Under the pieces are notes generated by a model. The model made no database searches, was not told the origin of the DNA, and worked only from the letters and a program-made list of their open reading frames with translations. DNA of 64,000 nucleotides from Patescibacteria group bacterium (GTDB lineage: Bacteria; Patescibacteriota; Patescibacteriia; Magasanikbacterales; GWA2-37-8), in assembly GCA_022710645.1 (NCBI GenBank), contig JAKLGL010000002.1:212176-276175 (forward strand), read 5' to 3'. Positions within the stretch are counted from its first letter, which is position 1, and every line of letters begins with the position of its first letter. Both the position numbers and the translations under genes were made by a program. This document shows, piece by piece, positions 1 to 28,618 of this stretch.

Positions 1-3000
1 CACTGGGAGAAAAGGTACCTAAAAATTTAATTTTTTCCGCAGATTGCAAAATACTTCCTTTAACACTTAATTTTTCATTTTGAGCTTTGGTGCCGATTCC
101 AATTTTATTGAAATTATATAAATTACTTCCTGAGATATAAATATAATCATTAAGGGCTGTCGCAGACTGGAATTGCCCATCAGAAGATATTGCTATAGAT
201 GTCCAATTTTTTATTCCAGTGGCGGTATTGGTAGCCCAAGTATTACCGTGATCTATTGAGGAAAAAATATAGCCACTTTGTAGTTCAACCGCTGATTGAT
301 ATTTACCGTCAGAGGACATAGCCACATCAGACCATCTGGTTGATTTACCTTTCGCAGACCAGGTATTGCCATAATCAGAAGATATATAAATATAATCCCA
401 GTCAGTAGCTGAACCCACAACTGCGGTTTGATATTTACCATTGGCAGAAATACTTACAGCACTCCAAGCATTTTCTCCGGCTGAAGTGCTAGTAGTCCAA
501 GTAATACCATAATCGGAAGAAACACGGATAGGACCATCCATCTCAGCTAATATTTGATATTTACCATCAGAGGACACGGCTGAATCTGTTGACCCAAAGG
601 CATTAGACTCTGACCAACTACCAGAAATACCATAATTGAAAGATCTAACTATACTACCATTACAAGTAGCCAATTGATATTTACCATCAGAGGACATGGA
701 AATAGAACTGTGGCAACCTGCAAAAGCACCTCTTCCTATACTCCATGTTTTACCATAATCAGAAGATACACGAATTTGATTACCTAAACCTGTGATTGTT
801 TGATATTTACCATCAGAGGACATAGCTGTTTTGGTGTAACCCCAACCCGGTGTAGTTGTTGTCCAGCTATATCCATAATCCGAGGAACTATATAACAAAT
901 TATTGGATGAATTTCCAGCAATTTGATACTTACCGTCAGAGGATATAGATATTGAAGCCCAGTTTATTTTTTGACTATCCGCTTTAATATGATAATCCGA
1001 CCAAACAGAGCCCACATCTATCGCCCAATTGTTTTCAGATATTTTATTTTTTCCAAAATACAATCCTCCTCCTTGATCAAAAATTAATTGATCTCTCACT
1101 GATACTCCGTTACTTGCCACAAACAAAGCACTGGTAGCTTGCCAACTTGCTCCACCTTGATTTACAAGCATTTGTCCAGATATACCAGAGGGTATAATAG
1201 GAGAACCATTTATAAAATAATTCCCAGAAATATTGACATTTCCTCCATAAGAAATATCAACATAGGAGGTATAAATAGGAGAATAATTACTAATCACAGC
1301 TTGAAAATTTCCTTCCGCTGACACAACTATACTTCTCCAAGTATTATTTATAAAATTTTTATTAACCCAAGTATTGCCATAATCTGAGGAAAAATAAATA
1401 CTTCCCTGGTCCGCATCATAACCATTGGATATGGAAATTGCGGTTTGATATTTGCCGTTAGCAGAAATAGCCACATCTTGCCATTTTCTTGCACCAGCAG
1501 AAGTGCTAGTAGTCCATGTATTTCCATAGTCTGAAGAAATATAGATATAATTAGCATCAGCATTCCAATGATTACCCGAAACTACAGTTTGATATTTACC
1601 ATCAGATGATAGAGCAACTGACCTAAACTCTCCGTAATAGCTGCTAAATTTTTGAACAAAAGTATTACCATAATTAGAAGATATGTAAATGTAACCACTA
1701 TAGATAACTGTTTGGTACTTACCATCTGAAGAAATTCCTACTGCAGGATTAGTCCCGGCATAAATCGTGTTGTTCCTTTTCCAAGTATTACCATAATCAG
1801 AAGAGGTGTGGACAAAACCATTCATTGCCACGGCTGTTTGATATTTACCGTCAGCTGAAATGGAAACAGATGACCAATTACCGGAATTATCTGTGGTCTT
1901 GTCTGACCAAGTAGCGCCATAATCAGAAGAAATATATACATCACCATCTCCATCTCCGGCCACAGCAGTCTGATATTTTCCGTTTGAAGAAATAGAAATT
2001 CCTACCCAGCTCCTTTGATCAGAGGAAGTGCTAATAACCCAAGTATTACCATAATCCGAGGATATGTATATATAATCATTACCTTTAGCAAGACTTTGAT
2101 ATTTGCCATCAGATGATATGGCTAAATCTCTCCAAAAAGCATCAAAGGCTTTGGAAGAAGTGACGTTCCAAATAGTTTCCATGTCTGAATTCCACATATT
2201 TTCTGAAACTCTAGTGCGACCAAAATATATTCCACCTTCTTGATTGGATAATAATTGATTATCAAAAAGAGAACTCCCTTGCACAGATAATAAACGCCCT
2301 GGAGCGTTATCACCAATACCAACATTACCACCCAAAATAGCAAAAGTATTATTTTGTGATAATGTTTGTGCGGTAGTGGTGCTCAAATTTATACCGAATG
2401 AAGAGTCGCCAAATACCCCCATCCCCGAACCCATTGCATAAGAAGAAATACCGGTTGAAGTATTATTAACACCTCCTAAGACAATTGAATAATCTCCGGA
2501 AACTAAATTATCTTGACCACCCAATATTACTGAATTTACACCAGAAGCTATACTTCCATACCCACCCACAATTGTCGCCCCCATACCAGAAGCTATATTT
2601 GCTTGACCACCAATAATAGCTGTAAAATAATTTGTTGTTGTGTTGTACCATCCACCTAATATAATTGAATCTCGTCCAAAAGCTTCATTATCATATCCGC
2701 CAATTATAGCAGAACGAAGACCACTAGCTTCATTGCTAAAACCACCACCAATAAAAGAACTTTCTCCCGAAGTTATATTACTATCCCCCCCACCAACAAA
2801 AGAATAGTCTCCTGAAGCTCTGTTTTGCATACCAGCAGCGAAACTCCAATTACCTGCTGTATTACTAAACGCATTAAGCATTGAAATACTGTTTGTTGTG
2901 TTGTTGATAGTTATTCTCCGCGTTGCCTCCCAACCAGAAGAACCATAAAAAAGAGTTTGCCCGGTCATTCCAGATGGCAATGAAGCGCCGGAAATCCCAA

Positions 3001-6000
3001 GCGAACTTGTATTTGTCCAATAAGGCAAAGAAGTGACCGGATTAATCATCAAAACTTGATTTGCTGTTCCACCAATACCGCCAAATTTAAGTGTGCCGTT
3101 ATTGTTGATGTCTAAATCACCAGCTACGGTAAGCAAACTAGATGGCGAAGCTGTGCCAATACCGATTTTGCCATAAGTATAAGAATCGGCAGTGGAGGTA
3201 TAAATATATCCTCGATCTCCCCATTCTCTAGAAACCATGGTTTGATATTTGGCGTCAGCGGACATGGCTACAGATTTAAGCGTATTATAACTAACATAAT
3301 CAGTGGTCCAATTATCACCAAAATTGTTTGAAATATAAATATAATTTGAAGTGATAGCCGTGCGGTGTTTACCATCTGAAGACATGGTAATGTCCACTAG
3401 ACTAGAAACATTAGTGTTTACAGTCCATGTTTGACCATAATCAGTTGAGCTATATATATAACCAGAATCCACAGCAGCAGTTTGATATTTACCATCTGAT
3501 GACATAGCTAGCGATTTCCAGTTTAAATAACCGTAATCAGTTTTAGCAGTCCAGGTTTGTCCATAATCAGAAGATGTGTATAAATATTCCCCATTAACAG
3601 AGGCTGTCTGGTACTTACCATCTGACGATATGCTTACATCGCTCCAATTTCTCCATGTATCGTTGAGTTTAACATTCCATGTGCTACCGAAATCAGAGGA
3701 AATGTATACTACCACATTTTGCAAAACCAATGTTTGATATTTACCATCTGCAGAAATGGCTACGTAACCAGGACCGCCAAAACTATGTATATTTGACCAG
3801 TTTAGTCCATAATTTGAAGAAGTATAAAGATTACCTCCGTTGTTCATAGCAATCTGATATTTACCATCAGCAGACATGGCCACTGAATTGGCTAAATATC
3901 CTTGCCAAGTATAATTCCAAGTTTGTCCAAAATCTGTTGATCTAAATATATAACCATTTTGATTTGCTATTGTTTGGTATTTTCCGTCCTTGGACATGAC
4001 AACATCTTCCCATTGATCATAATATGAAAAATTTTGTTGCCATGATTGTCCAACGTTTGTTTCTTGGAAAGTGTCATTATAAAGCATCGGATCCCAAAGA
4101 GAACCACCTGATGAAATATCAGAAAGTTGATTTCCATTCCAAAACAATTCTCCACCTTGATTGTATAAAGCATTGGTTATATCTCCCGGCAAAGCATCAG
4201 CAATGGTTAAACCATAACCTGTTTGAATTTGATTGTTAAATACAGCATTGCCAGTGAACAAAGAAGATCCGTCAACTGTCAAAAGACTACCTGGAGTGGA
4301 AGTACCAATACCAACGTTACCTAATTCACTTACAGAAATACCACCTTGTGTATTACCGTTGGTATTAATATTTAAAAGACCATTATTACGAATCTTGAAA
4401 GATACAAAATTATTATCATCATAAACTAAACGCAAAGAGTCGGAACCAAAACTTTCTGGAGTTTCATTTAAAATTTCAACTAAAGTAGATGTTGGCATAA
4501 CCAAAGGTGGTCCGTCCATCTGTAAACTACCACCATCAGTTGCTTCGTTGAAAGTTGTAATATTCTCTGCGGTGATAGCGTAATAAGACCAACCTTCTCG
4601 GTCTGTATAGATATTTATCAAATAACCATCCTCATCATCTACATTATTCCAACTCCAACTAATCAAAGTATCATCACTTGGTGTGGTTGTGGTTTGTCCA
4701 AATGGCAAATAATAAACAGGGTCGGAATAAACAATCTCACCGCCAACTTCACGATAAGAATAAACCCGGGCATTTCTTTGTGTCCCTGAAGGAAATCCAT
4801 TTCCACCTCCACTCACCCATTCAACAAAATCTAAATTTGAAGGTGTGCCAAATGTTCTAAATTCAGGCAAAGAATTAAATTCACTAAAAACAGTATTTGT
4901 TGTAAACGAATATAAAAACCAACCCATACCTTGGACATAGCCGTTATACAAATAACCATCAGCACCTTCAACTTCATCCCAACTCCAAACAGCCATATAG
5001 TCAGTATCTGGAGTTGAAGTGGTGTCAGGTGGAATAACATAATAAGTAGGATCAGAATAAATTCTACCATTAGCTGTATCTTTATAACTATAAATTCTAA
5101 CATTTCTTCCGGTTCCAGGCGGAATCATACCTCCCAAAAACGCAGACGCGTCTTCCCAACCTGTTAATTCAATATTTTGTGTGTTATTTACAGTAATGTT
5201 TTGAAAACTAGTGCTACTAGAATATACAGAATAGCTGTTATCCAAAATGCTTAATCTAGCTAAACTATTCAAATCCATTCCTATACCAACATTACCCAAA
5301 AGAGAAGTTCCTTGTTCAGATAAAGTAATAGTTCCTGTAGGGCTTTGGTTAACTGATAATTTTAAATTACCATTATTCAATACTTTGAAGGAAGAAAAAT
5401 TGTTGGTGTCATAAACAAACCGTAGCGAATCAATGCCGTAATCCATAATTCTATTGTTTGAGACATCTGGCGGACCATCATCGTTTATACTACCAGCCAT
5501 AAATTCAGCTAGTTCACTAACTGAATTTGCTGTAGTTGTACCATAATTATCCCAAACCATTCCATCCCCATCAAAATTTCCACCTATATTTAAAAGATAT
5601 CCGTCCACAGTGTCAGCAGAAGCTGTCCAACTCCAATCTATCAAACACCCTTGTTCTGCTGGGTCAGTTGTAGTTGTGATATTACTTGGAAGACCTAGAT
5701 AATTTTGAGAATAATATCTTGTCCCTAATATGTCTTTATAAGAATATATTCTAATATTTCTTTCTACAAAACCTGGCGGAAGCATCCTATAATAATCTTC
5801 TGAACAAACCCATTCATATTGTAAATCTGTTGGCGGACTAAAAGTTTCTGAAGTATAACTATCATCCGCAATAACCACTCTTGAATTATTATCGGTAGAT
5901 GTCCCAATCCCTACATTTCCATTAGCCAAAATACTTAATCGCTCATTTCCGCCACCACTGGCGCTATCAAAAATAGAAAATCTATCTTCAATTTGAGTCA

Positions 6001-7778
6001 AAGACCAAGTACTTGTTCCGAGGTTTATAATATTTGTCCAAACTTCATTCCAGCGAGCATCAGAAGCACCGAGACTATACAAACTCACGTTCCCATCTCC
6101 GCCAGTCATATCTGGTAAAATATTTTGCATTGTTGAAGTGCCGGCTACAGACAAAAGAGTGGTTGGGTTGGTAGTGCCTATACCGACATTACCATTATTA
6201 TCTATCCTCATCCTTTCGTTTGATGCCAAAGTCCCACCAGTATGAAATTTGATAGCGTTTGAAGAATTATTTTCAGCTATACCAATCGCTAATGATTTAT
6301 TTGAAGCATACAGATAGGAATCATTGGCTCCCACAATAGTAAAAAGTGGATTATTATATCCAGAACTATTGATACCTAAATCAACATAATAAGAAGTATC
6401 GGTTCCATTATTGGCTGTGGCAATATAATCAGTAGAAGCATTTCCTCCGGAAGATAAATTTTGATTATTTATTTGTGAATAAGTATTTGTGTTTGCAAAA
6501 AATGAAGCAATCGAATTTGGTAAAGCATTTCCAGCGCCAACTTGCAAAAGACTACCGGGAGTAGTTGTGCCAATACCAACATTACCACCATTAAAATAAG
6601 AAGAGCCATTTGAATTTAAATAAATTTTAGTGGAATTTGTATTTTTAACTGAAATATTTCCAGCACGATTCGCACCTTGACTAAGAGTAACTATACTTTC
6701 TCCGTTATAACCTCTAATATCTAAGGCATTTGTATAATTGGTAGTAACACTTAAAGTTAATAAACTGTTAGGTGCAGTGGTTCCAATTCCAACAAATCCA
6801 GAACTACTAACAAAGATATTATTGGTAGCAGTCCAATCTGCACCATCGTAATAAAGCGTCTGACCAATAGAACCACTTGGTAAAGAACCACCGCCAACAA
6901 TCCCCAAAGTATCTGTTGCTACCCAAGTTGGAGAACCACTATTTAACTGCAAAATCATACCATCTGATGATGGTACAATAAAATCATAGGCAGAACCATT
7001 GGAATAAACCAAAGATCCATTACTTCCAAGAGTAGAAGTTCCTGTACCACCTAGAGAAGTTAGCAAAATTCCAGAAACTTCAGAAGTAGATGATAAATCA
7101 ATAGTACTAGTAGACCAAACACCCCCAGAAACTTTTACTATACCAGTCCAATCAGAAGAGTTTGCACCAACGCCACCATAAGCCGAACTTATAATATCAC
7201 CTTGCCAAGTACCTGAAGTTATTAAACCAAAAGTTGAATTTCCAACAACTGACAAAAATCCTCCAATATATTGATTGGTAGAAGTAATATAAGTAAATTG
7301 AGCGGTTGTTGCAGTTTCCGTACCAATAGCTCCCGGAGCAGCCCAAGTTTTTCCTTCTAATTGTGAAGATGTAAAAGCAGCCGGCACGGCACCGAGAATT
7401 TTTCTCGGACTCATGGTTTCCAAAGAAGAAGTTCCGATGCTAACTTCAAGATAAAGTGTTTGATTAAAATCAACACCCGTCAAACTGGAAACATCTCCAA
7501 GCATCACCGAGAATAAACCATTACGCAAATTTACCAAATACGGAGTTGATGTTCTTTCTTCCGACCAAACAGCTGTACCGCCTGTTTCTTGATTAAACAA
7601 TTCAAATTTCATCATGTAATCTCCATCGGAAACAGGTCTATTGTTTAAATCAAAAAGTTTTCCTTGATAATTGATTTCAGGATTAAAAGCAGCATTTGCG
7701 GTTGCAAAAAAAGACATGGCAAATACCAAAAAAATAGGTAAACCTAAAATTACATTTTTCCTCCAAAAATTGCGCATA
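1..7778 (-). CDS. Giant secreted surface protein (partial; C-terminus beyond window start). It has a signal peptide, tail-fibre-like GNVGIGTTxP beta-helix repeats, three Fn3-like repeats, YadA/Hep_Hag-like G-rich repeats, and more than 20 BNR/Asp-box SxDxGxTW repeats.
   Basis: Manual translation of the reverse strand from the ATG at 7776-7778 (MRNFWRKNVILGLPIFLVFAMSFFATANA...) gives an uninterrupted frame to position 1. Recurring ISSDGKYQT...SSDYGNTWT modules keep the frame throughout. The gene is not in the ORF track because its stop lies outside the window. Confidence 0.8.
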
Positions 7779-7829
7779 AAAAACGCTATTTTTTGCTTAA
7801 TATTAGCTAAATTTTCTCTCTATGTGTAT

Positions 7830-7838
7830 ATTATACCA
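7830..7838 (-). promoter_or_regulatory. Extended -10 element (TGgTATAAT) about 45 nt upstream of the giant gene start
   Basis: The reverse strand reads aaaaaaTGGTATAATATacac. No good -35 is present, which is compatible with an extended -10 promoter. Confidence 0.3.
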
Positions 7839-7950
7839 TTTTTTGCAATCGCTGAAAATAGCTAAGATAGGCAAAAAAAAAGGCAAAACTGTGGATAAGT
7901 TTTACCGCCAGTCCATAACGTCTTTAATGTCTATAAAGTCTATAAAATAT

Positions 7951-7980
7951 AATAAAAAAACGGCCTTTTTACAGGCGTTT
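7951..7980 (-). terminator. Weak bidirectional hairpin (AACGGCC...GGCGTT) flanked by A and T runs, downstream of the 8054 gene
   Basis: The sequence is aaaaaaacggcctttttacaggcgttttttt. The stem has a bulge. Confidence 0.3.
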
Positions 7981-8053
7981 TTTTATTAAAAAATTTTTAT
8001 TGCTTTATTTTTCCGTTTTGTCCTTTATGGACTTTAAGGACTTTATGGACTTT

Positions 8054-9088
8054 TTACTTCATTATCTTCCACTTCTCTTCTTCGGAGATTAGATAATAAG
8101 TGTCTGTTTTTTTATTCGCAGAAATTGTAATGCTATAAACTTTTGGAAATAACAAATCGTATTTTTCACTTTTCCAGTTATCTACCACGGAAATATTTGT
8201 TATTACCACATTTTGATCTTCTACGTTATTCGGCGCTAAAATAGTTTTATAAGCGGAAATAAATTTATTATTATCAATTTTATTTTGAACATCGTTTGGT
8301 AGATTTTTATAAATATCACCAAATTTTCCTCTGGCTTCGGCATCCATAACGGAAATCAATAAATTATACATGTCCGGAGAAAAATACCAAGATAATAATT
8401 GATCGTTTTGTTTTGATGACAAAGATAAAATAACAGCCTTCTTTAAATTTGGATGAGTCAGATAAATACCTTCTCCTGATTTAACTTTATTAAAAACAAA
8501 ATAACCGGAAGCCGAAGTTTTAACAACCGTATCTCCGGAACTCAAATCAGCTTTAACACCTTGTAAAGTCAAAGGATCTATTAATTGACCTGAAACTTTA
8601 TTCAAAATCAATTCCGGAGCATCTTTCACTATTTTAAAATATCCGAGTTTAAAATTAAAAAACAAACCGGCAAACAAAGCCGCACCCACCAATAACATAG
8701 CAATAATAACATTAATTCCGAAATATCTGGTTTGTCTCGGAAAACCCATAGCCTCAGCATCCGCTTTTCTGGCCAAACGAACCATATTAATTGCAGCGAC
8801 AGCTACCAATAAAACCAAAACCCAGATGGTAATAGTGGAAATCGCCGGAACTACATTTGTTACTCTGTCTATCAAACCGAAATTTTCACTGCTGGTCGGA
8901 GTTGTTTCTTGTTTTAAAATATAAATCAAAGCTTCGTCGGTATTTCCGTATTCATCCTCCACCATAATAACATGAGGTCCTTCGGACAAACTTTTATCAA
9001 TCATTAAATCCCAATTACCAGAAGAATCGCTTTGCAAATCAAAAGCGTAAGGTTGAGGATTGCTGTTGGTTGTGGTGTTTTCTTCCAT
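8054..9088 (-). CDS. Hypothetical membrane protein (two TM helices, ~190-aa C-terminal extracytoplasmic domain), last gene of the surface operon
   Basis: 344-aa ORF. Hydrophobic segments are ISTITIWVLVLLVAVAAI and NVIIAMLLVGAALFAGLFF. There is a 3-nt gap to the upstream gene. Confidence 0.6.
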   Translation of the reverse strand: MEENTTTNSNPQPYAFDLQSDSSGNWDLMIDKSLSEGPHVIMVEDEYGNTDEALIYILKQETTPTSSENFGLIDRVTNVVPAISTITIWVLVLLVAVAAINMVRLARKADAEAMGFPRQTRYFGINVIIAMLLVGAALFAGLFFNFKLGYFKIVKDAPELILNKVSGQLIDPLTLQGVKADLSSGDTVVKTSASGYFVFNKVKSGEGIYLTHPNLKKAVILSLSSKQNDQLLSWYFSPDMYNLLISVMDAEARGKFGDIYKNLPNDVQNKIDNNKFISAYKTILAPNNVEDQNVVITNISVVDNWKSEKYDLLFPKVYSITISANKKTDTYYLISEEEKWKIMK

Positions 9089-9093
9089 ATAAA

Positions 9094-11496
9094 TTAGTAA
9101 ATCACCGCTTTTATTTTACTTTTTGGTGTTGCGTTGCCGTTGACATAAACACGACTGCCGGTTTCGTTTTGCACATTGAGTATTTTCAAAAAAGTTTTTG
9201 GTTTGGCTGGAGTTGTAACCGGTTTTGGTTTTACCGGAACGGAAGGTTTTACCGTCGGTACCGGGCATTCTTTAACAATCTCACGCACTACTTCAAATTG
9301 CGGAGACATTAATAATTCCGGACCGTAAACTTCATTACCGCCGGCTTTAGTCATCGGACGAAAATAATAAACTTTGCCTTTTTCCAAATTATTTATCAAA
9401 ACCGCATGATAAACGGAATTATCCAATCTTTCTATAGTGCTATAAGAGTAACCCAAATTTGTGTTTGTTTGATTCACGCTTTCTACCGGAGAAGTTCCAT
9501 AAACCACTCGCGAAGATCCGGCTATTGAAGAATACCAAGTTATCAATACGGTAGAACCATCAACTTGCGTAGCAAACGCATTATTCGGACTTATGTTTAA
9601 CAATGTCGGCGAACTTCCACCAGAACTCCCTCCCCCGCAAGCACCGCCCCCGGTTCCCACACATTTAAGCAAAGAAGTGCTCCAGGAAGTGTTACTGCCG
9701 CAATAAGAAGATCCGACGCAAGATCCCCCGGTAGAAACAGAATAAACATATCTGCTCATCACATTACCGGAATTGTCTCGCGTATAAACTATAACCGGAA
9801 TAGATTCACCGGCAATAAAATCATTTTGCGGATCCAAAACAAAAGCATAATCGTTTATATTTCCGGTACGAGCTGTTGTGTCTCCGGCATAATTACCTCC
9901 GTTAAAATCGGAAGAAGTGGAGAAAGATATCGTTTTACCATTGATTGATAAACTTCCGGCACCACCTCCATTGGTATAATAATCTCCGTTTATATAAAAA
10001 ATCGTATTACTCAAATCTATCCCTGTTCCGGTATCTTTGAGATGCAAAGAAATCTTATCATTTAAAGCCACAGAAGCATCATTTAAAGGAGATAGATTAT
10101 CAACAAAAGGGCTATCTGTATCAGCTGTGGAAAAAGTATAGTTATCAGTGGTCATAATATTTCCGGCCAAATCAGCGCAATCATACACACTTACCGATAC
10201 AGTCTCATTTTGCGCAAAATCCGTAGTCGGATTTATCGTAAATCGATAACCATAATCTATAGCTGTTACTGTAACCGTTCCCAAACCTTGTTGAAAAGTA
10301 GTTAAAGCAAAACTCGGAGAAGAAACATTTATTCGGCAAGTGCCAGCATTAACTCCCGTACCGGAGATATTACCGGGATATGTTTTTTTATCATTTAAAT
10401 CAATGACGATATTCGTATTAACACTGTTACTACCACTGCTTCTAACCGGGCTTTCCGCCACCACACGAGGCGCGACAGTATCCGCTTCAGTAATGAAAGT
10501 CCATGTTTTACTATCCATAATGTTCGGACCATTGGTATCACCTAACTGATTTTGCGCAGATGAAGCATAATCACGATAATTATTTACCACTACAGTATAA
10601 GTGGTGTTATATTCCCAATTACGCATATCACCGGAAATTCCGGAAGGAGAGCTCGGATTAATCGTAACATTACAGAGATTTGTTCCCCAAACACCAGAAC
10701 ATCCATAACTAGCTGACCCTATTTGACTCACGGAATTAAAAGTAATATTACCGGTAGCAGTATCTACACCTGTGCCAACACCGCTATTATCTCCCTCTCC
10801 GTTTTTACTATCTCTCAAATCAAAATAATAATCGTCATCAATCGCCACCCCCGATCCTCCTGAAACAGGAGACGGGTTTAAAGCGTAAGGTTTTTTTGTA
10901 TCAGCCCATAGATGTAATGAAAAATCTTCAGCATCATTCATAATATCTTCGCCATTGTAAGAAATATTACTTTCCGTGGTACTTCCAAAAGAACCTGTAT
11001 TAATATTTAAAGTCGTCGGAGCACCGGTGCCATAATTAACAGCTGTCGGTTTAATCACGGTAAATTGAACCGAACCAAAAGTACCTATTCCCGAAGAATT
11101 CCCCGAAGTACGATATCCGGTTGAACGAGTACGCCAAATATTACCTGAAACAAAAACTGTATTTTGTCCGGACCATACCGGAAAATAAGTTCCTGTATTT
11201 AAATTTGAAGAAGTTACAACCGAAGCATCATGATCTATCCAAATATTAGCCGAATTGGTATGTTCAGAATTTATCTGCATGGTAGCGGTAAAAGTCTGAC
11301 CGACATAATAATAATTATAATCAGACGGATTCCCAGTTCCCCCGTCACCAGTATTATCCGCTCCAGTAAAAGGTGATGATAGAAGTTGAAACCAATTATT
11401 TCCCGAAGGGGTAGCAGAATAAACAAGATTTGCAAACAAAAAAATACCGGCCAACAAGAACAGTGAAAAAAGTGTTTTCTTTTCTTTAAAAACCAT
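9094..11496 (-). CDS. Large secreted surface protein (signal peptide, G/S/T/N-rich beta-type domains, Fn3/PAP-like module, Pro/Lys-rich linker, Cys cluster)
   Basis: 800-aa ORF. N-terminus is MVFKEKKTLFSLFLLAGIFLFANLVYSA. It has an Fn3-like TVLITWYSS...VYYFRPMT module and a C-terminal PVPTVKPSVPVKPKPVTTPAKPK segment. Confidence 0.65.
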   Translation of the reverse strand: MVFKEKKTLFSLFLLAGIFLFANLVYSATPSGNNWFQLLSSPFTGADNTGDGGTGNPSDYNYYYVGQTFTATMQINSEHTNSANIWIDHDASVVTSSNLNTGTYFPVWSGQNTVFVSGNIWRTRSTGYRTSGNSSGIGTFGSVQFTVIKPTAVNYGTGAPTTLNINTGSFGSTTESNISYNGEDIMNDAEDFSLHLWADTKKPYALNPSPVSGGSGVAIDDDYYFDLRDSKNGEGDNSGVGTGVDTATGNITFNSVSQIGSASYGCSGVWGTNLCNVTINPSSPSGISGDMRNWEYNTTYTVVVNNYRDYASSAQNQLGDTNGPNIMDSKTWTFITEADTVAPRVVAESPVRSSGSNSVNTNIVIDLNDKKTYPGNISGTGVNAGTCRINVSSPSFALTTFQQGLGTVTVTAIDYGYRFTINPTTDFAQNETVSVSVYDCADLAGNIMTTDNYTFSTADTDSPFVDNLSPLNDASVALNDKISLHLKDTGTGIDLSNTIFYINGDYYTNGGGAGSLSINGKTISFSTSSDFNGGNYAGDTTARTGNINDYAFVLDPQNDFIAGESIPVIVYTRDNSGNVMSRYVYSVSTGGSCVGSSYCGSNTSWSTSLLKCVGTGGGACGGGSSGGSSPTLLNISPNNAFATQVDGSTVLITWYSSIAGSSRVVYGTSPVESVNQTNTNLGYSYSTIERLDNSVYHAVLINNLEKGKVYYFRPMTKAGGNEVYGPELLMSPQFEVVREIVKECPVPTVKPSVPVKPKPVTTPAKPKTFLKILNVQNETGSRVYVNGNATPKSKIKAVIY

Positions 11497-11532
11497 ACTT
11501 CTTATTTTTTAACGTTCTTATTATAACACGTT

Positions 11533-12189
11533 TTATTCTCCTTGCATATCCAAATTTTTGAGCAACAAACTCAAATCTACGGAATTCACAACAACATCTT
11601 GATTCACGTTAGCTCGAATTCCGCGAGTAGTCAGATCGTTTGCATCCAAATCATTTAACATTATACTCAAATCAACAGAATTGATCTCATTATCTCCCAA
11701 AGTATTTGGATCAACTCCCAATCCGCTAATATCTCCAGCTAAAAGACGCACTGGGCCCGTAACACCGTCGGCATTATCGGTTGTCGTAAAATTAAAAATA
11801 TTTAAACCATCTGGTATGGAAATATTTGCCAATTTTTTGGATAAATGTTGATGAGTTTTGATATAGACATCAAAATTACCCTCTGGAAGCGTATCTATGA
11901 TAATCGGCGATAATCTTTCACCTGCCACTGTGGTAGTTAACAAAGAGTCCATTTTATAAGCAATATTTTCCGTGCCCGGATCTTTAAAATACAGATAGAA
12001 AGTCGTATCCCAATTTGTACTACTAGCCCCTACTCTGCCTTCGGGTATCGCCCATTTAACTTCAGCTCCGACCTGTCTAGTAACGGTTAGTTCCACAGGA
12101 AAGCTTACGGAAGCGGCGGAAACAAAACTTAAACCGACGAAGGCGGTTAGAAAAGTTAGAAAGATAAATTTTGAGAAAGAAAACAACAT
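11533..12189 (-). CDS. Secreted protein with a C-terminal dockerin-like Ca-binding repeat pair
   Basis: It has a signal peptide. LGDNEINSVDLSIMLNDL and VNQDVVVNSVDLSLLLKNL match the dockerin DxNxDGxVNxxDlxlLkkyl pattern. Confidence 0.55.
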   Translation of the reverse strand: MLFSFSKFIFLTFLTAFVGLSFVSAASVSFPVELTVTRQVGAEVKWAIPEGRVGASSTNWDTTFYLYFKDPGTENIAYKMDSLLTTTVAGERLSPIIIDTLPEGNFDVYIKTHQHLSKKLANISIPDGLNIFNFTTTDNADGVTGPVRLLAGDISGLGVDPNTLGDNEINSVDLSIMLNDLDANDLTTRGIRANVNQDVVVNSVDLSLLLKNLDMQGE

Positions 12190-12214
12190 GTGTTTAAAAT
12201 TTCAAATTTCCAAA

Positions 12215-12982
12215 TTAGTTCATATACGCCGTAATCGTAATCTGCGCTCGGTATTTTCCCGAAACTTGCAGATGTTGATTTCCACTTTCCGCTTGAAAAT
12301 GAATTGTAGTAGTGGTGCCTTCCGGATCATTATAGTTTTCTGATGAGGCAATTGTTTCTAAAGTTTGAGACAAAGGTCCCCAACAAGCTCTTTCCGTATC
12401 ATTACCGTCAACAACATTACAAACACCGCTATTGTCTCTGTATTTAGAAACAATATCTATTCCTTCCGGAGTAAAACCAAAAACCGAAGTAGTTGGCGCA
12501 ATATCCCAAACAAAATCAGGGGCGCTTCCTACCGGTATATAATCATCAAAATAATAGGTGGTTGTATTGATATGTTGCAGAGCCGGCGAGGTGCTGGCAT
12601 TGATTTGTAAAGTATAACCAAATTCATTAGTCGTCATCACATGGGCATAAGAAGTACCTGTAGCATTTCCTCCGGTTAAACCGGGAATAGATGGTTCAAG
12701 AGTGGTAGAACTTGGTGCTGATAAAGCTATAAAAGCTGTTTTCATCTGTTGATATCCGGCGTGAAGAATAAAATTTGTACTACTACTGTAACCGGTGGCA
12801 ATTTCACCCATACTGTCTTCTTCTTGAAAACTATCAGAATTACTATATCCTCCGCCAAAATTTATAGAATCCTGTTGCATCTTAAAATTTGTACTTGTCA
12901 TTACTTGTGCCAAAACTGGCGTCGAGAAGACGCCAGTTAAAATAGCCGTAATAATTAAGATTTTTATTCCCGCCCTGACCAT
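12215..12982 (-). CDS. Small secreted protein, paralog B (WxL-like candidate)
   Basis: It has a signal peptide and an IPGLTGGNATG motif. Its ...QITITAYMN C-terminus parallels the 14062..14628 product. Confidence 0.55.
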   Translation of the reverse strand: MVRAGIKILIITAILTGVFSTPVLAQVMTSTNFKMQQDSINFGGGYSNSDSFQEEDSMGEIATGYSSSTNFILHAGYQQMKTAFIALSAPSSTTLEPSIPGLTGGNATGTSYAHVMTTNEFGYTLQINASTSPALQHINTTTYYFDDYIPVGSAPDFVWDIAPTTSVFGFTPEGIDIVSKYRDNSGVCNVVDGNDTERACWGPLSQTLETIASSENYNDPEGTTTTIHFQAESGNQHLQVSGKYRAQITITAYMN

Positions 12983-12986
12983 ATCT

Positions 12987-13991
12987 TTATGCTTGAGGTT
13001 TTTGTCCGATATTTATATGAACGTTTTTCTTAATCCAAACGATAAGCCAGATCAACAAAACTATACCAAGTAATGTCGGAACTACAACTTTCCACGGCAT
13101 TACCCAAAAAGTAACAATTTGCCTATCGATAACATCTATTTCTTTATTGGCATTATCGGCAGTATAACCACGATTCAAAAAGATTTCCGCTTTATAACGT
13201 CCGAGCATAAATCCATGATCCCAAGATTTTTTCATAGATCTCTCGCTACCGGGTAAAACATAATACGGGTCTATTTTTACTCTATCAACAACCGTACCGT
13301 AAAGATTTTTTATCTCCACATAACCATAAGGATTTAAATAGACGCTTCCGTTGTTTTTATAAGTATAAAACAATTCCATCGGTCCTTTTTGATATAATTT
13401 TTTATCAGTTTTAAAAGCGGTCAAAGCACCGTCTTCTTTTACCGGACCGCTGACACGAACAAAATACAAAACAGCAATTCTGGATTTGACATCAACACCG
13501 CCTTTTATTAAAGTCGGATCTGTTTTTTGATCTTCTACGTCAGGCTGCGTAGTCACTATCACCGAACCATACAAACCACCGGGAACAGCATCTTTTGGGG
13601 CCGAAATCTGCACGGCAATGGTTGCTCTATCTCCACTTTGAAGAGTAAATTCCATGGCTTCCGGTTTAATATAGTCTTTCAAAGAATAAGGCCCTTTCAA
13701 AAGACCAAGGAGTTGAATTGGCGAATCAATTTCATTTTTACCTTGAAAATCTTCTAATTCCAATTTGAATTTGCGCGCTTGAGGAAATCTGTTGGTTACA
13801 TTAATAAATTTCATTACCGATTGCGATGGATCCAAAACAATTTCTTGTTTACCAGGACCAACCACAAAATCGTTGGCCAAATTTACATTTTCCAAATTTT
13901 CTATTTTAATAGCTTTAGCCGGAATGCTATTGCCAAATAAAAAAACCAAGGCGATTACTAAAAGTCCCCCTTTAAGAAATCGTGTATTCAT
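12987..13991 (-). CDS. Cell-surface protein with DUF916/DUF3324-like (CscA-like) architecture: signal peptide, ~300-aa beta-rich ectodomain, C-terminal TM anchor with a basic tail
   Basis: N-terminus is MNTRFLKGGLLVIALVFLFG. The C-terminal TM is VPTLLGIVLLIWLIVWIKKNVH. Confidence 0.5.
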   Translation of the reverse strand: MNTRFLKGGLLVIALVFLFGNSIPAKAIKIENLENVNLANDFVVGPGKQEIVLDPSQSVMKFINVTNRFPQARKFKLELEDFQGKNEIDSPIQLLGLLKGPYSLKDYIKPEAMEFTLQSGDRATIAVQISAPKDAVPGGLYGSVIVTTQPDVEDQKTDPTLIKGGVDVKSRIAVLYFVRVSGPVKEDGALTAFKTDKKLYQKGPMELFYTYKNNGSVYLNPYGYVEIKNLYGTVVDRVKIDPYYVLPGSERSMKKSWDHGFMLGRYKAEIFLNRGYTADNANKEIDVIDRQIVTFWVMPWKVVVPTLLGIVLLIWLIVWIKKNVHINIGQKPQA

Positions 13992-14061
13992 AGATTGATT
14001 AAATTAATTTAACTTTATAAGATGAACGAAAAATTCGTTCATCTTAAAAATAAACTAAAGA

Positions 14062-14628
14062 TTAGTTCATTTGAGCTGTGATGGTAACCAAAGAAGCATA
14101 TACTCCGGTTGGTTGTCCTTTTGAACTACCTACGAAAGCTCGAAAATTCATTGTGGAAGTTGTTCCAGCAAAAGAAGTTTCTGTACTACTTGCGGTAATA
14201 CTTTGAGGAGTACCCGGGGTAAATGCAGTCCAAGAACCTCCATCATAATTATAAGAGAATTCTGCAACATCTGCAGCATCTGTAGTGCCATTAGCAAAAG
14301 TATCTCCATTTCCATTGGTCAAAGTAGTAGCATCAGCTGTCATAGAAAAACCATCACTATTGTTGGTTCTTACAAGACATTCTTTTGCACCTGTAGCTGT
14401 ACCACCAGTCATACCAGGTATCGGTAATGAAAGAGTGGTAGTAGATAAATCACAGGTAAGTGTGATTTCAGCGGTAACTTCTACTTCTACCGGATATTGT
14501 AAGCTAATATCAGCTCCAATGGTACTGGTACTTACTGTATCAGCGCTAGCAAAGCCACCTTCAAAAAGCATAAAGCCATTGAACATAACTACTGCGCCGA
14601 TTAAAACATAAGACAAAATCTTTTTCAT
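14062..14628 (-). CDS. Small secreted protein, paralog A (WxL-like candidate)
   Basis: It has a signal peptide and an IPGMTGGTATG motif. Its C-terminus is VTITAQMN. Confidence 0.55.
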   Translation of the reverse strand: MKKILSYVLIGAVVMFNGFMLFEGGFASADTVSTSTIGADISLQYPVEVEVTAEITLTCDLSTTTLSLPIPGMTGGTATGAKECLVRTNNSDGFSMTADATTLTNGNGDTFANGTTDAADVAEFSYNYDGGSWTAFTPGTPQSITASSTETSFAGTTSTMNFRAFVGSSKGQPTGVYASLVTITAQMN

Positions 14629-18378: not shown

Positions 18379-18450
18379 GGCCCGTTCGTCTATCGGCTAG
18401 GACATTGCCTTCTCAAGGCAAGTAGAGGAGTTCGATTCTCCTACGGGCTA
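18379..18450 (+). tRNA. tRNA-Glu (anticodon CTC)
   Basis: 72-nt cloverleaf. Acceptor GGCCCGT/ACGGGCT. D-loop contains GG. Anticodon stem TTGCC/GGCAA with loop TTCTCAA. T-loop TTCGATT. Confidence 0.8.
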
Positions 18451-18459
18451 CAAAAAAAA

Positions 18460-24124: not shown

Positions 24125-26134
24125 TTATACTATCCTCACATCAACCAAACTAACTCCATTTTCATTACAAAACACCGGATTAAAATCCATTTCCTTAATT
24201 TCCGGATGATCTATCGCCAATTTGGATATGGCCAAAATCGTCTTTTTGAGAGCTTCAAAATTTATGGCTTTTTGTCCTCTGGCACCTTTCAAAATATTTA
24301 TACCTTTTATTTCTTGAATCAAATTTTCAACATCGTTTTCATCAAGCGGTGCAACTTTCATAGAAACATCTTTGAGAACTTCTACAAATATTCCACCCAA
24401 ACCAAAAACTATAGCCGGACCAAAAACCGCGTCGCGTTTCATACCGATTATCACTTCCCTACCTTTGACCATACTTTGTAATAACATCCCTTGAATTTTG
24501 ATATTTGCAAATTTTTCAGAAATATTTTTTGAAATTTCCTCCCAAGCTTTTTCAATATCTTCTACGGTTTGTAAATTTAATTTCAATCCTCCAACATCGC
24601 TTTTGTGTAAAACTTTATCTGTGATAGCCTTGAGTACAAACGGTCCGTTCATTTTTTCCATAGCAGAATTTATTTCATTTTTATCAGACAACAAAATTCC
24701 GGAAGTTGATTGTCCGACACTTTGCAATAATTTTTCCGTTTGCGCATAATTCATTTGATCAACAACAACTTCTTCTTTTTTCTTTTCTATGGCTATTTTA
24801 TTTTTAAAAGATAGATAATCAAATACTTTCACCAAATCTATAGGATCGGAAAAGTAAGCAATATTTTTTTGTCGGAAAATTTTCAAAGCCGAATCTATTT
24901 GCGCGCCTCCGATAAAAAGCGGTAGAACTGTTTTTTTCTTATTTATTTTGGCAATTATTTTTGCAGTTTCTTTGATTTGCGTCATCTTTTGCGGAGTTAG
25001 GATTACCGCCAACGCGTCTATATCTTTGACTTTGCTCAAAATTTTCAAAGCACTTTCATATCTATCACTCAACGCGTCACCGATAACATCCACCGGATTG
25101 CCGACTGCCGCGGTCGCAGGCAATACTTCACGCAAAGCGTCTTTTGTTTTTTCCGTCAAAGTTGCCAAATTTAAACTTTGTGAAAGCTCCAATAAATCCG
25201 CCAAGATGATAGACGGTCCCCCGCCATTGGTAATTATACCGATGTTTTCAAGCGGTTGGTAAATTCCAGCGTTAAACAATTTTAACAAATCAAACATTTC
25301 GGAAATCGTTTCTACGTTAATAACTTTGGCTTGCGCGCAAACAGCTTCAAATATTTTATTTTCCGAAGCGAGTGATCCGGTGTGCGACGCTACGGCTTGC
25401 GCTCCTCGCGCTGTTTTACCGGCTTTGAGCACTACCAAAGGTTTAACCGCAGTGATTTTTTTCGCCAATTCCAAAAATCTCTTTCCATCTGATACAGCTT
25501 CCAAATACATTACGATAGCTTTGGTTTTTTCATCATTTAAAAGATATTCCAGAAAATCGTTTTCCGTAAGTCCGGCTTCATTGCCGACAGAAATAAAATT
25601 GGCAAAACCGATATTTTCTTTTTTTGCAAAATCAAGCATAGAAGTCCCGACTGCGCCCGATTGTGAAATCACGGAAATGTTTCCAACTTTGGGAAGTTCG
25701 TCGCCAAAAGTGGCATTGAGATTATCGTGACAATCAAAAATACCCAAACAATTCGGACCAATGATTTTTATTCCGTATTTTTGCGCAATCTGCTTGATTT
25801 CATCTTCGCGTTTTTTTCCTTCTTCTCCGGTTTCTTTGTAACCGGCGGTAATAATAATACAATATGGAATTTTCTTTTCTCCACAAGAATTCAAAACCGA
25901 AGGTACTATTTCCGGTTTGACGGCAATCACCGCCAAATCAACTTCTTCTTTTATTTCCATTACCGCAGAAAAAACTTTTTCACCCAAAATTTCTTTTTCA
26001 CTTGGGTTAACCAAAAAAATTCGGCGTTTATTTTTGTCGGCCAACAAATTAAAACTCAAAGCATAACCAATTTTTTCTTTGTTGGCAGATGCACCGATAA
26101 CCACTACTCCTTTGGGGTTAAATAGGTTGTCCAT
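24125..26134 (-). CDS. Acetate--CoA ligase (ADP-forming), fused alpha/beta
   Basis: N-terminal CoA-binding motif GVVVIGASANKEKIGY. Succinyl-CoA-synthetase-like and ATP-grasp halves. Confidence 0.8.
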   Translation of the reverse strand: MDNLFNPKGVVVIGASANKEKIGYALSFNLLADKNKRRIFLVNPSEKEILGEKVFSAVMEIKEEVDLAVIAVKPEIVPSVLNSCGEKKIPYCIIITAGYKETGEEGKKREDEIKQIAQKYGIKIIGPNCLGIFDCHDNLNATFGDELPKVGNISVISQSGAVGTSMLDFAKKENIGFANFISVGNEAGLTENDFLEYLLNDEKTKAIVMYLEAVSDGKRFLELAKKITAVKPLVVLKAGKTARGAQAVASHTGSLASENKIFEAVCAQAKVINVETISEMFDLLKLFNAGIYQPLENIGIITNGGGPSIILADLLELSQSLNLATLTEKTKDALREVLPATAAVGNPVDVIGDALSDRYESALKILSKVKDIDALAVILTPQKMTQIKETAKIIAKINKKKTVLPLFIGGAQIDSALKIFRQKNIAYFSDPIDLVKVFDYLSFKNKIAIEKKKEEVVVDQMNYAQTEKLLQSVGQSTSGILLSDKNEINSAMEKMNGPFVLKAITDKVLHKSDVGGLKLNLQTVEDIEKAWEEISKNISEKFANIKIQGMLLQSMVKGREVIIGMKRDAVFGPAIVFGLGGIFVEVLKDVSMKVAPLDENDVENLIQEIKGINILKGARGQKAINFEALKKTILAISKLAIDHPEIKEMDFNPVFCNENGVSLVDVRIV

Positions 26135-26138
26135 AGTT

Positions 26139-26912
26139 TTATAATTGCTCTTCAAAAGTTGGTTTATCCACTTCATAAAAAATACCTAAAGGAATTTTTT
26201 CCATTTCTTGAACTTTTTCCATCGCCCATTTCAAATCGTTTTTTGGTAAATTGGAATCAATCTGATAAACTTTTTCTTTGAAATAATCGCGAGTGTCGGC
26301 AAAACTGATGCATGGTTGGATAATTTCCAAATGAGCAAAACCTTTGTGTAAAATCGCTTTCTTCATCACTTGCATCAAAAAAACCATATCTCCGGTATAA
26401 GCGCGAGCCACAAAAGTGGCGCCGGAACTAAGCATCACCAAAGATGGATTAATCGGTTCTTCTATACTACCACCGGGAGTTGATTTTCCTTTATAACCTT
26501 TTTTAGAAGTAGGTGTCACTTGTCCGGTAGTCAAACCAAAAACTTGATTATTATGCACAAACAATTTGATATCACTATTTCTCTTTGAAGCATGGACCAG
26601 ATGTTCCATACCCTCAGCATAAGAATCACCGTCGCCGGAAAAAGCAATCGCCGTCAAATCCGGATTTCCCAATTTAACTCCAGTCATTGTCGGCACAACA
26701 CGACCATGAAGGGAAATAATACTGTTTACATTTACATAATCGGCTATTTTGCCGTGACAACCAATCCCGGCTCCGACAACTACTTTATCTTTTTTTATTT
26801 TTCCTTCATTTATCAATTCAGTCAAAGCATTTTTAAAAGCGGTCAGAATCATAAAATTGGTGCATCCCGGACACCAAGTATTTTTTGCTTTGGTATTTAA
26901 ATCTACAGTCAT
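26139..26912 (-). CDS. 2-oxoacid:ferredoxin oxidoreductase beta (TPP-binding) subunit
   Basis: WCPGCTNF...GIGCHGK...GDGD TPP-binding motifs. Confidence 0.8.
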   Translation of the reverse strand: MTVDLNTKAKNTWCPGCTNFMILTAFKNALTELINEGKIKKDKVVVGAGIGCHGKIADYVNVNSIISLHGRVVPTMTGVKLGNPDLTAIAFSGDGDSYAEGMEHLVHASKRNSDIKLFVHNNQVFGLTTGQVTPTSKKGYKGKSTPGGSIEEPINPSLVMLSSGATFVARAYTGDMVFLMQVMKKAILHKGFAHLEIIQPCISFADTRDYFKEKVYQIDSNLPKNDLKWAMEKVQEMEKIPLGIFYEVDKPTFEEQL

Positions 26913-26913
26913 A

Positions 26914-28614: not shown

Positions 28615-28618
28615 AAAC

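Follow-up and report, generated by a model that had tools for sequence, protein, structure and literature searches.

How ultra-small bacteria of the Patescibacteria (also called the Candidate Phyla Radiation, CPR) recognize and hold their hosts is largely unknown beyond the type IV pili of the Saccharibacteria, and the first 7.8 kb of the stretch of DNA analysed here (64,000 nucleotides of contig JAKLGL010000002.1, referred to as the window) raise the question whether a giant protein of at least 3,436 residues, encoded on the minus strand and running off the window, serves this purpose. The preferred reading, to which a probability of roughly 0.6 is given, is that the giant protein is exported by the Sec pathway and acts, on the surface of an episymbiotic cell of Candidatus Magasanikbacteria (Patescibacteria/CPR), as a fibre adhesin that is similar to the prey-binding mosaic adhesive trimer (MAT) fibres of the predator Bdellovibrio and greatly enlarged when compared with them. 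That the protein is an exported, mosaic member of the MAT superfamily at the cell surface is more certain than this, and the trimer and the adhesion to a host are less certain. The most informative feature is a MAT-type N-terminal domain, which was overlooked in an earlier reading of the same DNA made from its letters alone (the sequence-only reading). The adhesin proposed in that reading is kept as the most plausible function, suggested by homology and by the architecture of the protein.

Translation of positions 1-8100 in all six frames gives a single long open stretch, on the minus strand, from 7819 to base 2 of the window. Its first ATG is at 7777 and is followed by 2,592 codons without a stop down to base 2 (residues 1-2592, 2..7777; all coordinates of the giant gene refer to the minus strand), in agreement with the sequence-only reading, in which the frame was also open throughout. 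With a stop frequency of 0.071 per codon, as calculated from the base composition of the coding strand, a run of this length has a chance of about 1e-83. The gene is absent from the list of open reading frames (ORFs) because it runs off the window. The ATG at 7777 is taken as the start because the alignments of two homologues (P0001 and P0002) begin at residue 3 of the giant protein. Retrieval of the flanking contig, a check proposed with the sequence-only reading, prolongs the frame: eight public contigs carry the gene for the neighbouring 344-aa protein, and in three of these (JGI 3300010429, NCBI GCA_035454185.1 and ENA ERZ27257455) the first 2,592 residues of the giant protein are identical to those of the window, and the flanks carry the protein on to residue 3,241. 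The NCBI product (HRY36901.1, 'hypothetical protein, partial', Candidatus Magasanikbacteria bacterium) has 3,436 aa, is free of stops and is cut by the contig end; the frame is still open-ended, and 3,436 aa is the minimum length of the protein. The cluster look-up of this product returns a single member.

Every contig ends inside the gene, and one related contig (L007, see below) looks chimeric, which could be taken to mean that the locus is an assembly artefact, or a decaying pseudogene without a product. This is scarcely credible when it is considered that three independent assemblies agree fully over the window part, that more than 10 kb is free of stops in DNA of 36% GC and that the modules recur in a relative from another lineage. 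The internal repeats are judged to be old duplications, not collapsed duplicates of the assembly, because they are merely 35-43% identical as protein and 60-85% identical as DNA. Clearly, the giant reading frame is real, and the gene is intact over its known part.

The signal peptide, the N-terminal domain and the protein family

The protein begins with a classical Sec signal peptide (aa 1-29, 7691..7777; MRNFWRKNVILGLPIFLVFAMSFFATANA|AF), in which the cleavage motif ANA|AF was read from the sequence. It is the sole hydrophobic segment of the giant protein, there being no other segment with a Kyte-Doolittle score above 1.6. The domain that follows (aa 30-150, 7328..7690) has a single family match, the NCBIfam model NF053851 (Bdello_MAT_N), with an E value of 2.8e-5 for the window copy, and when 43 homologous N-terminal domains are aligned, 41 of them match this model on their own, the best with an E value of 1.4e-12. 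The 60-bit cut-off of the model delimits the Bdellovibrio subfamily, and the scores, being below it, point to homology at the level of the superfamily and not to membership of the NF053851 model. The AlphaFold model of the domain is a compact beta-sandwich (pLDDT above 90 at model residues 10-105), for which no homologue was found in the PDB, as has likewise been reported for the MAT N-terminal domain of Bdellovibrio (Caulton et al. 2024, PMC10769870). Profile comparison establishes that this domain of ~120 aa is homologous to the N-terminal domain of the Bdellovibrio MAT fibres, and it is assigned here as a putative cell-proximal anchor.

MATs have been defined by a signal peptide, a ~130-aa domain that is conserved and beta-rich, an intertwined trimeric beta-helix and a swappable adhesive tip, the tip being a Peptidase_S74 chaperone/protease in some cases and another kind of domain in others (Caulton et al. 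2024, PMC10769870). For MAT examples, display at the surface and binding of glycans have been shown; MATs occur in several predator-associated phyla, with lengths of 417-1,915 aa and a single tip each, and the published list has no CPR members and no propellers (PMC10769870). The giant protein agrees with this definition, at the superfamily level, in having a signal peptide directly before the conserved beta-rich domain.

The same arrangement is found in many relatives. A search with residues 1-660 gave 466 homologues, and those that are named come mostly from Paceibacterota, Nomurabacteria, Parcubacteria and other Patescibacteria. Among the best 120 that are listed, 83 have the N-terminal domain, nearly always directly after a signal peptide, and the modules that come after it include Peptidase_S74 (in 19), YadA_head, collagen, Fib_succ_major, Gly_rich_2, Peptidase_G2 and BNR. 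In one homologue (P0105, 706 aa) the N-terminal domain is followed by a GNVGIGT stalk and, at the C-terminus, by a single Asp-box propeller whose blade sequence is that of the giant protein, and this homologue can be described, from its sequence, as a single-tip version of the giant. The matches listed by these searches are at most ~1.75 times as long as the query (1,140 aa for a query of 660, 612 for 350 and 484 for 277), for which reason giant relatives had been missed before an exhaustive search with residues 1-1200 was made against cluster representatives. This search gave 20,484 representatives at E<=1e-3 and 4,000 at E<=1e-10. At least 56 relatives have at least 2,000 aa (among 134 of the best 150 matches listed), and at least 46 of these giants, with lengths of 2,000-5,744 aa, begin with the N-terminal domain (among the best 150 matches listed); the comparison with giant proteins of other CPR genomes, which the sequence-only reading had recommended, is thereby made.

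Two of the relatives (P0247, 4,801 aa, and P0335, 4,746 aa) have an S74 domain near the C-terminus. The closest complete relative among the matches listed (P0246, 2,621 aa, named 'tail fiber domain-containing protein [Patescibacteria group bacterium]') has the 110-aa repeats and the UspA1-like blocks described below, and a Peptidase_S74 domain at 2310-2364. Another relative is a Ca. Magasanikbacteria protein, and yet another has been auto-annotated as 'beta-propeller fold lactonase family protein'. An ENA contig (L006) codes for a further giant, 2,790 aa or more in length, which has the N-terminal domain and LVIVD, BNR and YadA_head modules in an order unlike that of the window giant, and which also carries Pfam LbR_Ice_bind. 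These comparisons of sequence demonstrate that the giant protein is one of a large family of proteins that are mosaics of swappable modules.

The stalk, the globular modules and the beta-rolls

Short stalk segments with GNVGIGT motifs part all modules of the giant protein; GNVGIGT-type motifs number 7 within the window and 11 over the known 3,436 aa. The first and longest segment in the window (aa 151-640, 5858..7327) has GNVGIGT at aa 398, 529 and 620, a looser VGIGT at aa 329 and GQTL..W motifs. The motif scan also gave the segments at aa 1098-1249 (4031..4486; GNVGIGT at aa 1153) and at aa 1536-1640 (2858..3172; GKIGIGT and GQTL..W motifs), and three more are at aa 1816-1875 (2153..2332; GNVGIGD at aa 1817), at aa 2186-2266 (980..1222; a GQML..W motif) and at 2..97, where an NKIGIGT motif stands at the entry to the LVIVD propeller. 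Beyond the window there are 45-aa stalk repeats from aa ~3160. Within the first segment, aa 504-602 match the solved Bdellovibrio fibres Bd2133 (8ond, E 0.0024) and Bd3182 (8ojn, E 0.014) weakly. With the signal peptide and these motifs, the giant Sec-exported mosaic repeat protein with tail-fibre-like stalk repeats that the sequence-only reading had described is recovered.

Such a stalk could also belong to a chromosomal tail fibre of a prophage, a tailocin or an extracellular contractile injection system. Repeats of the GNVGIGT type (GNVGIGTTSP..KL) and S74 chaperones, the latter present in the relatives of the giant protein, are typical of phage tail fibres and tailspikes, NCBI calls relatives 'tail fiber domain-containing protein', and the stalk alone gives weak tblastn matches (E 1e-6 to 4e-4) in 7 of 50,697 phage records, in tail fibre and endosialidase-chaperone genes. 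However, the giant protein starts with a Sec signal peptide, for which phage fibres have no need, and has a cellular N-terminal domain that is unmatched in the 50,697 phage records; the PHROGs search gave no match, S74 is absent from the known part of the protein, and the neighbours are housekeeping and surface-protein genes, and the 64-kb window is free of genes for capsid, tail or baseplate. A prophage or tailocin origin is rejected on the basis of the context, PHROGs and the phage tblastn matches, and a phage-type fibre of any of these kinds is considered highly improbable.

Three blocks, separated by stalk segments, appear from their sequences to be seven-blade Asp-box (BNR) propellers without any sign of sialidase catalysis: propeller 1 at aa 1250-1535 (3173..4030; from Pfam and NCBIfam profiles and repeat analysis), propeller 2 at aa 1876-2185 (1223..2152; from profiles, repeats and the match to Ycf48) and propeller 3 at aa 2267-2560 (98..979; from repeat analysis). 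They have 21 blades of ~42 aa in three blocks of seven, with an SSDGKYQT motif paired with SSDYGNTW in each blade, and 17 strict Asp-box motifs are found across the 21 blades; the count of more than 20 tandem Asp-box units in the sequence-only reading was correct. The three blocks are mutually 35-42% identical, block 2 being 40-42% identical to blocks 1 and 3. The scores of Pfam BNR_6 (59.5 bits, cut-off 27) and Sortilin-Vps10 (47.8 bits, cut-off 33), together with the repeated S-x-D-x-G-x-T-W hairpins, are those of the Asp-box fold. A fourth propeller, with seven VSGxYAY units, lies outside the window at aa ~2600-2890 and is identified by the Pfam LVIVD profile (PF08309, E 2.6e-33, 113.5 bits, cut-off 20.2).

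The best NCBIfam match of the Asp-box blades is the F510_1955 family glycosylhydrolase (E 6e-24), sialidases are matched in the PDB (E 0.006-0.13), and one relative carries the lactonase annotation mentioned above. These matches would be expected if the giant protein were a secreted or surface enzyme (a glycoside hydrolase, sialidase or lactonase) degrading host polysaccharide, with catalytic propellers and the fibre as their carrier, and phage tailspikes often join fibres with depolymerases. However, the score of the glycosylhydrolase match, 84.6 bits, is half of the 175-bit cut-off and is carried by the Asp-box blades, and the sialidase matches are weak and span merely 1-2 blades each. A sialidase of family GH33 has six blades, the FRIP motif and an arginine triad; here there are seven blades per block, and the FRIP/RIP motif ([FYW]R[IVL]P) is found nowhere in the giant protein. 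The blades are short and near-uniform, with no loops inserted, and one block (propeller 2) has the non-enzymatic Ycf48 as its best solved match (weak, E 2.8e-4). When compared with the propellers of Ycf48, Vps10/sortilin and GH33-GH74, the blocks are alike in having the S-x-D-x-G-x-T-W hairpin in each blade and seven blades per block, and unlike them in having no catalytic motifs, in the unusual regularity of the blades with their second motif SSDGKYQT, and in the presence of three separate propellers in one giant chain with stalk segments between them. The sialidase identity is rejected on the grounds of the absent FRIP motif, the blade number and the Ycf48 match, and an enzyme of any of these classes is regarded as very unlikely. 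The sequence-only reading had called the repeats typical of sialidase, sortilin or beta-propeller proteins; the BNR_6 and Sortilin-Vps10 scores uphold the propellers, and the sialidase is not supported. The Asp-box is a structural hairpin and gives no indication of the ligand.

Between the first stalk segment and propeller 1 there are three repeats with the motif RIYSYKD...WSW...DGYL (aa 641-788, 858-985 and 975-1097; 4487..5857), with a bit of stalk carrying GNVGIGM at aa 828 between copies 1 and 2. The copies are 33-36% identical to each other, and the repeat is also present in P0246 and P0003. The AlphaFold model, made from seven copies, is a beta-sandwich of seven strands (pLDDT 84.5, pTM 0.79). 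The sequence-only reading had described three Fn3-like repeats of ~65 aa; the three copies are there, but the unit has ~110 aa, and there is no match to Fn3. The repeat has no match in Pfam at E<=10, none below E 0.4 among the PDB profiles and, for the model, none at E<0.1 among the PDB folds, where the single Fn3 chain listed has a TM score of 0.22; the Fn3 identity is rejected since, with an ordinary Fn3 domain, matches to many solved structures should have appeared. The best viral match of the model is a phage major-tail-protein domain (weak, E 3.7e-3, TM 0.52). As judged from the model, the 110-aa repeat may represent an undescribed domain family.

Two further blocks consist of GG.xNxASG repeats of 14-16 residues. 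Block 1 (aa 1641-1815, 2333..2857) matches, as a left-handed beta-roll, the head of the trimeric autotransporter UspA1 of Moraxella in the PDB (3pr7, E 1.4e-16; 3ntn, E 1.7e-6) and, more weakly, a monomeric plant ice-binding beta-roll (3ult, E 5.7e-4). Block 2, outside the window at aa ~2995-3160, also matches the UspA1 head (3pr7, E 1.1e-13) and is 43% identical to block 1. These UspA1 matches are to the head repeats of trimeric autotransporters, of which the UspA1 and YadA/Hep_Hag heads are examples, and the sequence-only reading, which had described a YadA/Hep_Hag-like block, was right as regards the beta-roll head but not as regards the Pfam profiles: YadA_head and Hep_Hag do not match the GG.xNxASG block of the window protein even at E<=1, and YadA_head passes its cut-off in the relatives L006 and P0013. 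The likeness to UspA1 extends over two blocks of ~170 aa each. Unlike in the trimeric autotransporters, there is no YadA_anchor and no coiled-coil stalk in the known 3,436 aa (Pfam gives no YadA_anchor beta-barrel in aa 1-2592 or 2564-3241), and the blocks are internal modules of a Sec-exported fibre.

The beta-rolls bear directly on the oligomeric state. The stalk is probably homotrimeric because of the UspA1 head match, the weak matches to the trimeric Bd2133 and Bd3182, and the Peptidase_S74 trimerisation chaperones with which relatives end. The same modules might be strung as beads along a single chain, the giant protein then being a monomeric adhesin or envelope protein in which the beta-solenoids are single-chain spacers, as in the Bap- and RTX-type adhesins. 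The propellers and the beta-sandwich, the latter modelled, are each self-contained single-chain folds, the beta-roll has a monomeric counterpart in the ice-binding protein (3ult, and LbR_Ice_bind in L006), S74 is absent from the known 3,436 aa, and in a trimer three bulky propellers would have to fit around the axis at each level. Nevertheless, among solved structures the strongest match is to the head of UspA1, an obligate trimer (E 1e-16), a Peptidase_S74 trimerisation chaperone stands at the end of P0246 and of other giants that have the N-terminal domain, and the N-terminal domain is that of the MAT trimers. A monomeric arrangement is considered possible, although rather unlikely.

The proposed fibre and the 3' end of the gene

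The following picture of a MAT-like fibre adhesin can be drawn. The signal peptide would be cleaved after ANA, and the conserved N-terminal beta-sandwich would stay at the envelope of the producing cell as an anchor, a role taken over from the proposal made in the MAT paper. The repeats of the GNVGIGT and SQWTTSG type and the two UspA1-like beta-rolls would form a long stalk, probably a homotrimer, along which globular binding modules (three 110-aa beta-sandwiches, three Asp-box propellers and one LVIVD propeller) would be strung, and with these modules the fibre might bind glycans or proteins of the host-cell surface in a multivalent and possibly multi-specific manner. From its sequence the giant looks like several fibre-plus-tip cassettes fused in series, since smaller relatives (P0105) consist of the N-terminal domain, the stalk and one Asp-box propeller tip. 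Homology makes adhesion the most plausible function.

Several points weigh against this picture. The scores of the N-terminal domains are all below the 60-bit cut-off of NF053851 (24 bits for the window copy), and the anchoring role of the MAT N-terminal domain is itself merely inferred in the literature. Solved MAT stalks are matched at marginal E values (0.002-0.014), the beta-roll resembles the monomeric ice-binding protein as well as UspA1, Asp-box and LVIVD propellers occur also in enzymes, and the C-terminus lies beyond all five contigs that reach the 3' part of the gene, the known sequence ending at residue 3,436.

When compared with the MAT of Bdellovibrio bacteriovorus, the giant protein is alike in the order of the N-terminal domain and a repetitive beta-helical stalk with phage-fibre-like motifs, in the swappable adhesive modules, in having relatives that end in Peptidase_S74 and in a producer that lives by attaching to cells. 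It is longer, with no fewer than 3,436 aa where the Bdellovibrio proteins have ~1,000 aa and those of the cross-taxon table 417-1,915 aa, and it differs also in having seven globular modules (four of them beta-propellers) along the stalk and not one C-terminal tip, and in an N-terminal domain below the curated cut-off. Patescibacteria are thought to have no outer membrane, which is a further difference from the producers of MATs and trimeric autotransporters.

No description of MAT-type fibres in Patescibacteria was found in the open-access literature. For other Patescibacteria, it has been proposed that very large proteins targeted to the surface and bearing adhesion domains take part in the interaction with the host (PMC13059738), and giant surface proteins are also known from Omnitrophota (bioRxiv 10.1101/2023.11.21.568195). 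In the searched passages of these two reports, the giants resemble the present protein in their signal peptide, adhesion-type domains, proposed host or prey contact and often fragmented genes; the domains listed there are Fn3, Ca-stabilised adhesin repeats, concanavalin A, integrin, dockerin and a long beta-helix, and those passages make no mention of a MAT-type N-terminal domain with a fibre stalk and serial propellers. What appears to be new here, as far as sequence comparison can tell, is the N-terminal domain and fibre logic of MATs in a giant protein, with serial propeller modules and in a CPR lineage. It is not a categorically new finding: it draws on homology and architecture, and the databases already label relatives 'tail fiber domain-containing'. 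If a MAT-type fibre is indeed made, a prey-recognition device of Bdellovibrio would be common to a very different, host-dependent lineage, in a larger, multi-module form. The giants with the shared N-terminal domain would then be concrete candidates for host-range determinants, and the three Asp-box propellers, the LVIVD propeller and the novel 110-aa sandwich are defined modules for ligand tests.

The 3' end of the gene shows a peculiar pattern. The five contigs that reach the 3' part (L001-L003, L006 and L007) all stop within aa 3,180-3,436, and the NCBI contig and L006 end at identical residues (...FIWHPKSA). The last ~180 residues are near-identical between the giant protein and L006, the first ~105 of these being fully identical, whereas outside this shared block the two proteins are 30-48% identical; a megahit k141 contig ends ~20 residues into the block. 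The conserved block (aa 3258-3436, to the end of the known sequence and outside the window) has no Pfam match, and no Peptidase_S74 was found in aa 1-3436, in contrast to the relatives P0246, P0247 and P0335. Exact-pattern scans of genome and metagenome contigs found no continuation past residue 3,436; a scan for related loci gave L006 and L007 alone in the metagenome contigs, both cut at this place, and nothing in the genome contigs. Searches with the last 350 and 277 aa gave no overlapping fragments, and the matches were confined to the 45-aa stalk repeat.

This pattern of contig ends is as seen when a sequence common to several genes or strains meets de Bruijn assembly, and it suggests a shared or recombining 3' cassette in the giant genes; it may reflect paralogues, recent recombination or hypervariation further downstream. 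The identical block of ~105 aa would fit cassette exchange ('tip swapping') or targeted hypervariation by which the host range is set. On the grounds that five independent contigs break within aa 3180-3436 and that this block is identical to that of a giant otherwise 30-48% identical, it can be speculated that in Patescibacteria the MAT fibre of the predators has grown into a class of multi-tip attachment fibres of giant size, in which several receptor-binding propellers stand in series on one trimeric stalk and the 3' end is a hotspot of recombination or diversification, an extension that is unlikely as it stands. Contig L007 (JGI Ga0116172_10000333, locus 5993-10830) has residues 1947-3180 of the giant protein with 99.5-100% identity, joined directly to neighbour genes (a Mur ligase and a Germane-domain gene) that are 77-81% identical to those of the window. 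At the join there is no start codon and no signal peptide; in view of this and of the unequal identities of the two parts, a natural short variant is rejected, and the sequence of L007 is probably a chimeric assembly, a true recombinant being less likely.

Neighbouring genes and the rest of the window

Upstream of the giant gene and on the same strand is a cluster of genes whose products are secreted or membrane-bound (8054-14628; 334, 188, 255, 218, 800 and 344 aa), and the five genes in 8054-13991 all code for secreted or membrane proteins. The 334-aa protein has a sub-threshold match to WxLIP_PGBD (E 1.1e-3, 19.4 bits, cut-off 27.3) and a C-terminal transmembrane helix, as in Csc-type proteins. 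The 188-aa and 255-aa proteins end in ITAQMN and ITAYMN, the 218-aa protein has a weak dockerin-like C-terminus, the 800-aa protein has Big_5 and Fn3-like domains and the 344-aa protein is a membrane protein; no WxL domain was matched by a profile in this cluster. The gap of 276 nt between the 344-aa gene and the giant gene holds a terminator-like hairpin with a T-run (7882..7906, minus strand), from a consensus scan and reading of the sequence, one such hairpin being found against 0.3 expected. It also holds a promoter-like site (7830..7858, minus strand; TTTTCA, a 17-nt spacer and TGgTATAAT) ~50 nt upstream of the ATG, with 10 of 12 consensus matches and an extended -10 element; sites of this kind are not enriched over shuffled sequence. 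At the L006 giant the upstream gene is unrelated, and the upstream cluster of the window is not there. The sequence-only reading had placed the gene immediately downstream of a Csc-like operon. The physical adjacency is confirmed, but the label is weakly supported, with a Csc profile below threshold, and a functional link between the giant gene and this cluster is not supported in view of the terminator- and promoter-like sites between them and the different neighbourhood of L006.

The rest of the window holds no phage genes and codes for housekeeping proteins, namely PBP2, BipA, PFOR, an [FeFe] hydrogenase, DnaK/DnaJ, IMPDH and a Mur ligase, all on the minus strand. A second giant ORF (55455-63839, minus strand; 2,794 aa) has TIG, Big_5, Laminin_G_3 (concanavalin-like) and VWA domains and no MAT-type N-terminal domain, and from these domains it looks like another large surface adhesin candidate. 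The genes in 24125-31383 (minus strand) code for an ADP-forming acetyl-CoA synthetase-like protein, subunits of a PFOR-type 2-oxoacid:ferredoxin oxidoreductase, the [FeFe] hydrogenase and a NuoF-like subunit, and they form a fermentative energy-metabolism block typical of anaerobic CPR genomes. The long ORFs with family matches are all on the minus strand, and the GC skew is negative in every 2-kb bin, which is consistent with a window that lies on one replichore with a strong gene-strand bias. The sole plus-strand feature found is a tRNA-Glu gene at 18379-18451.

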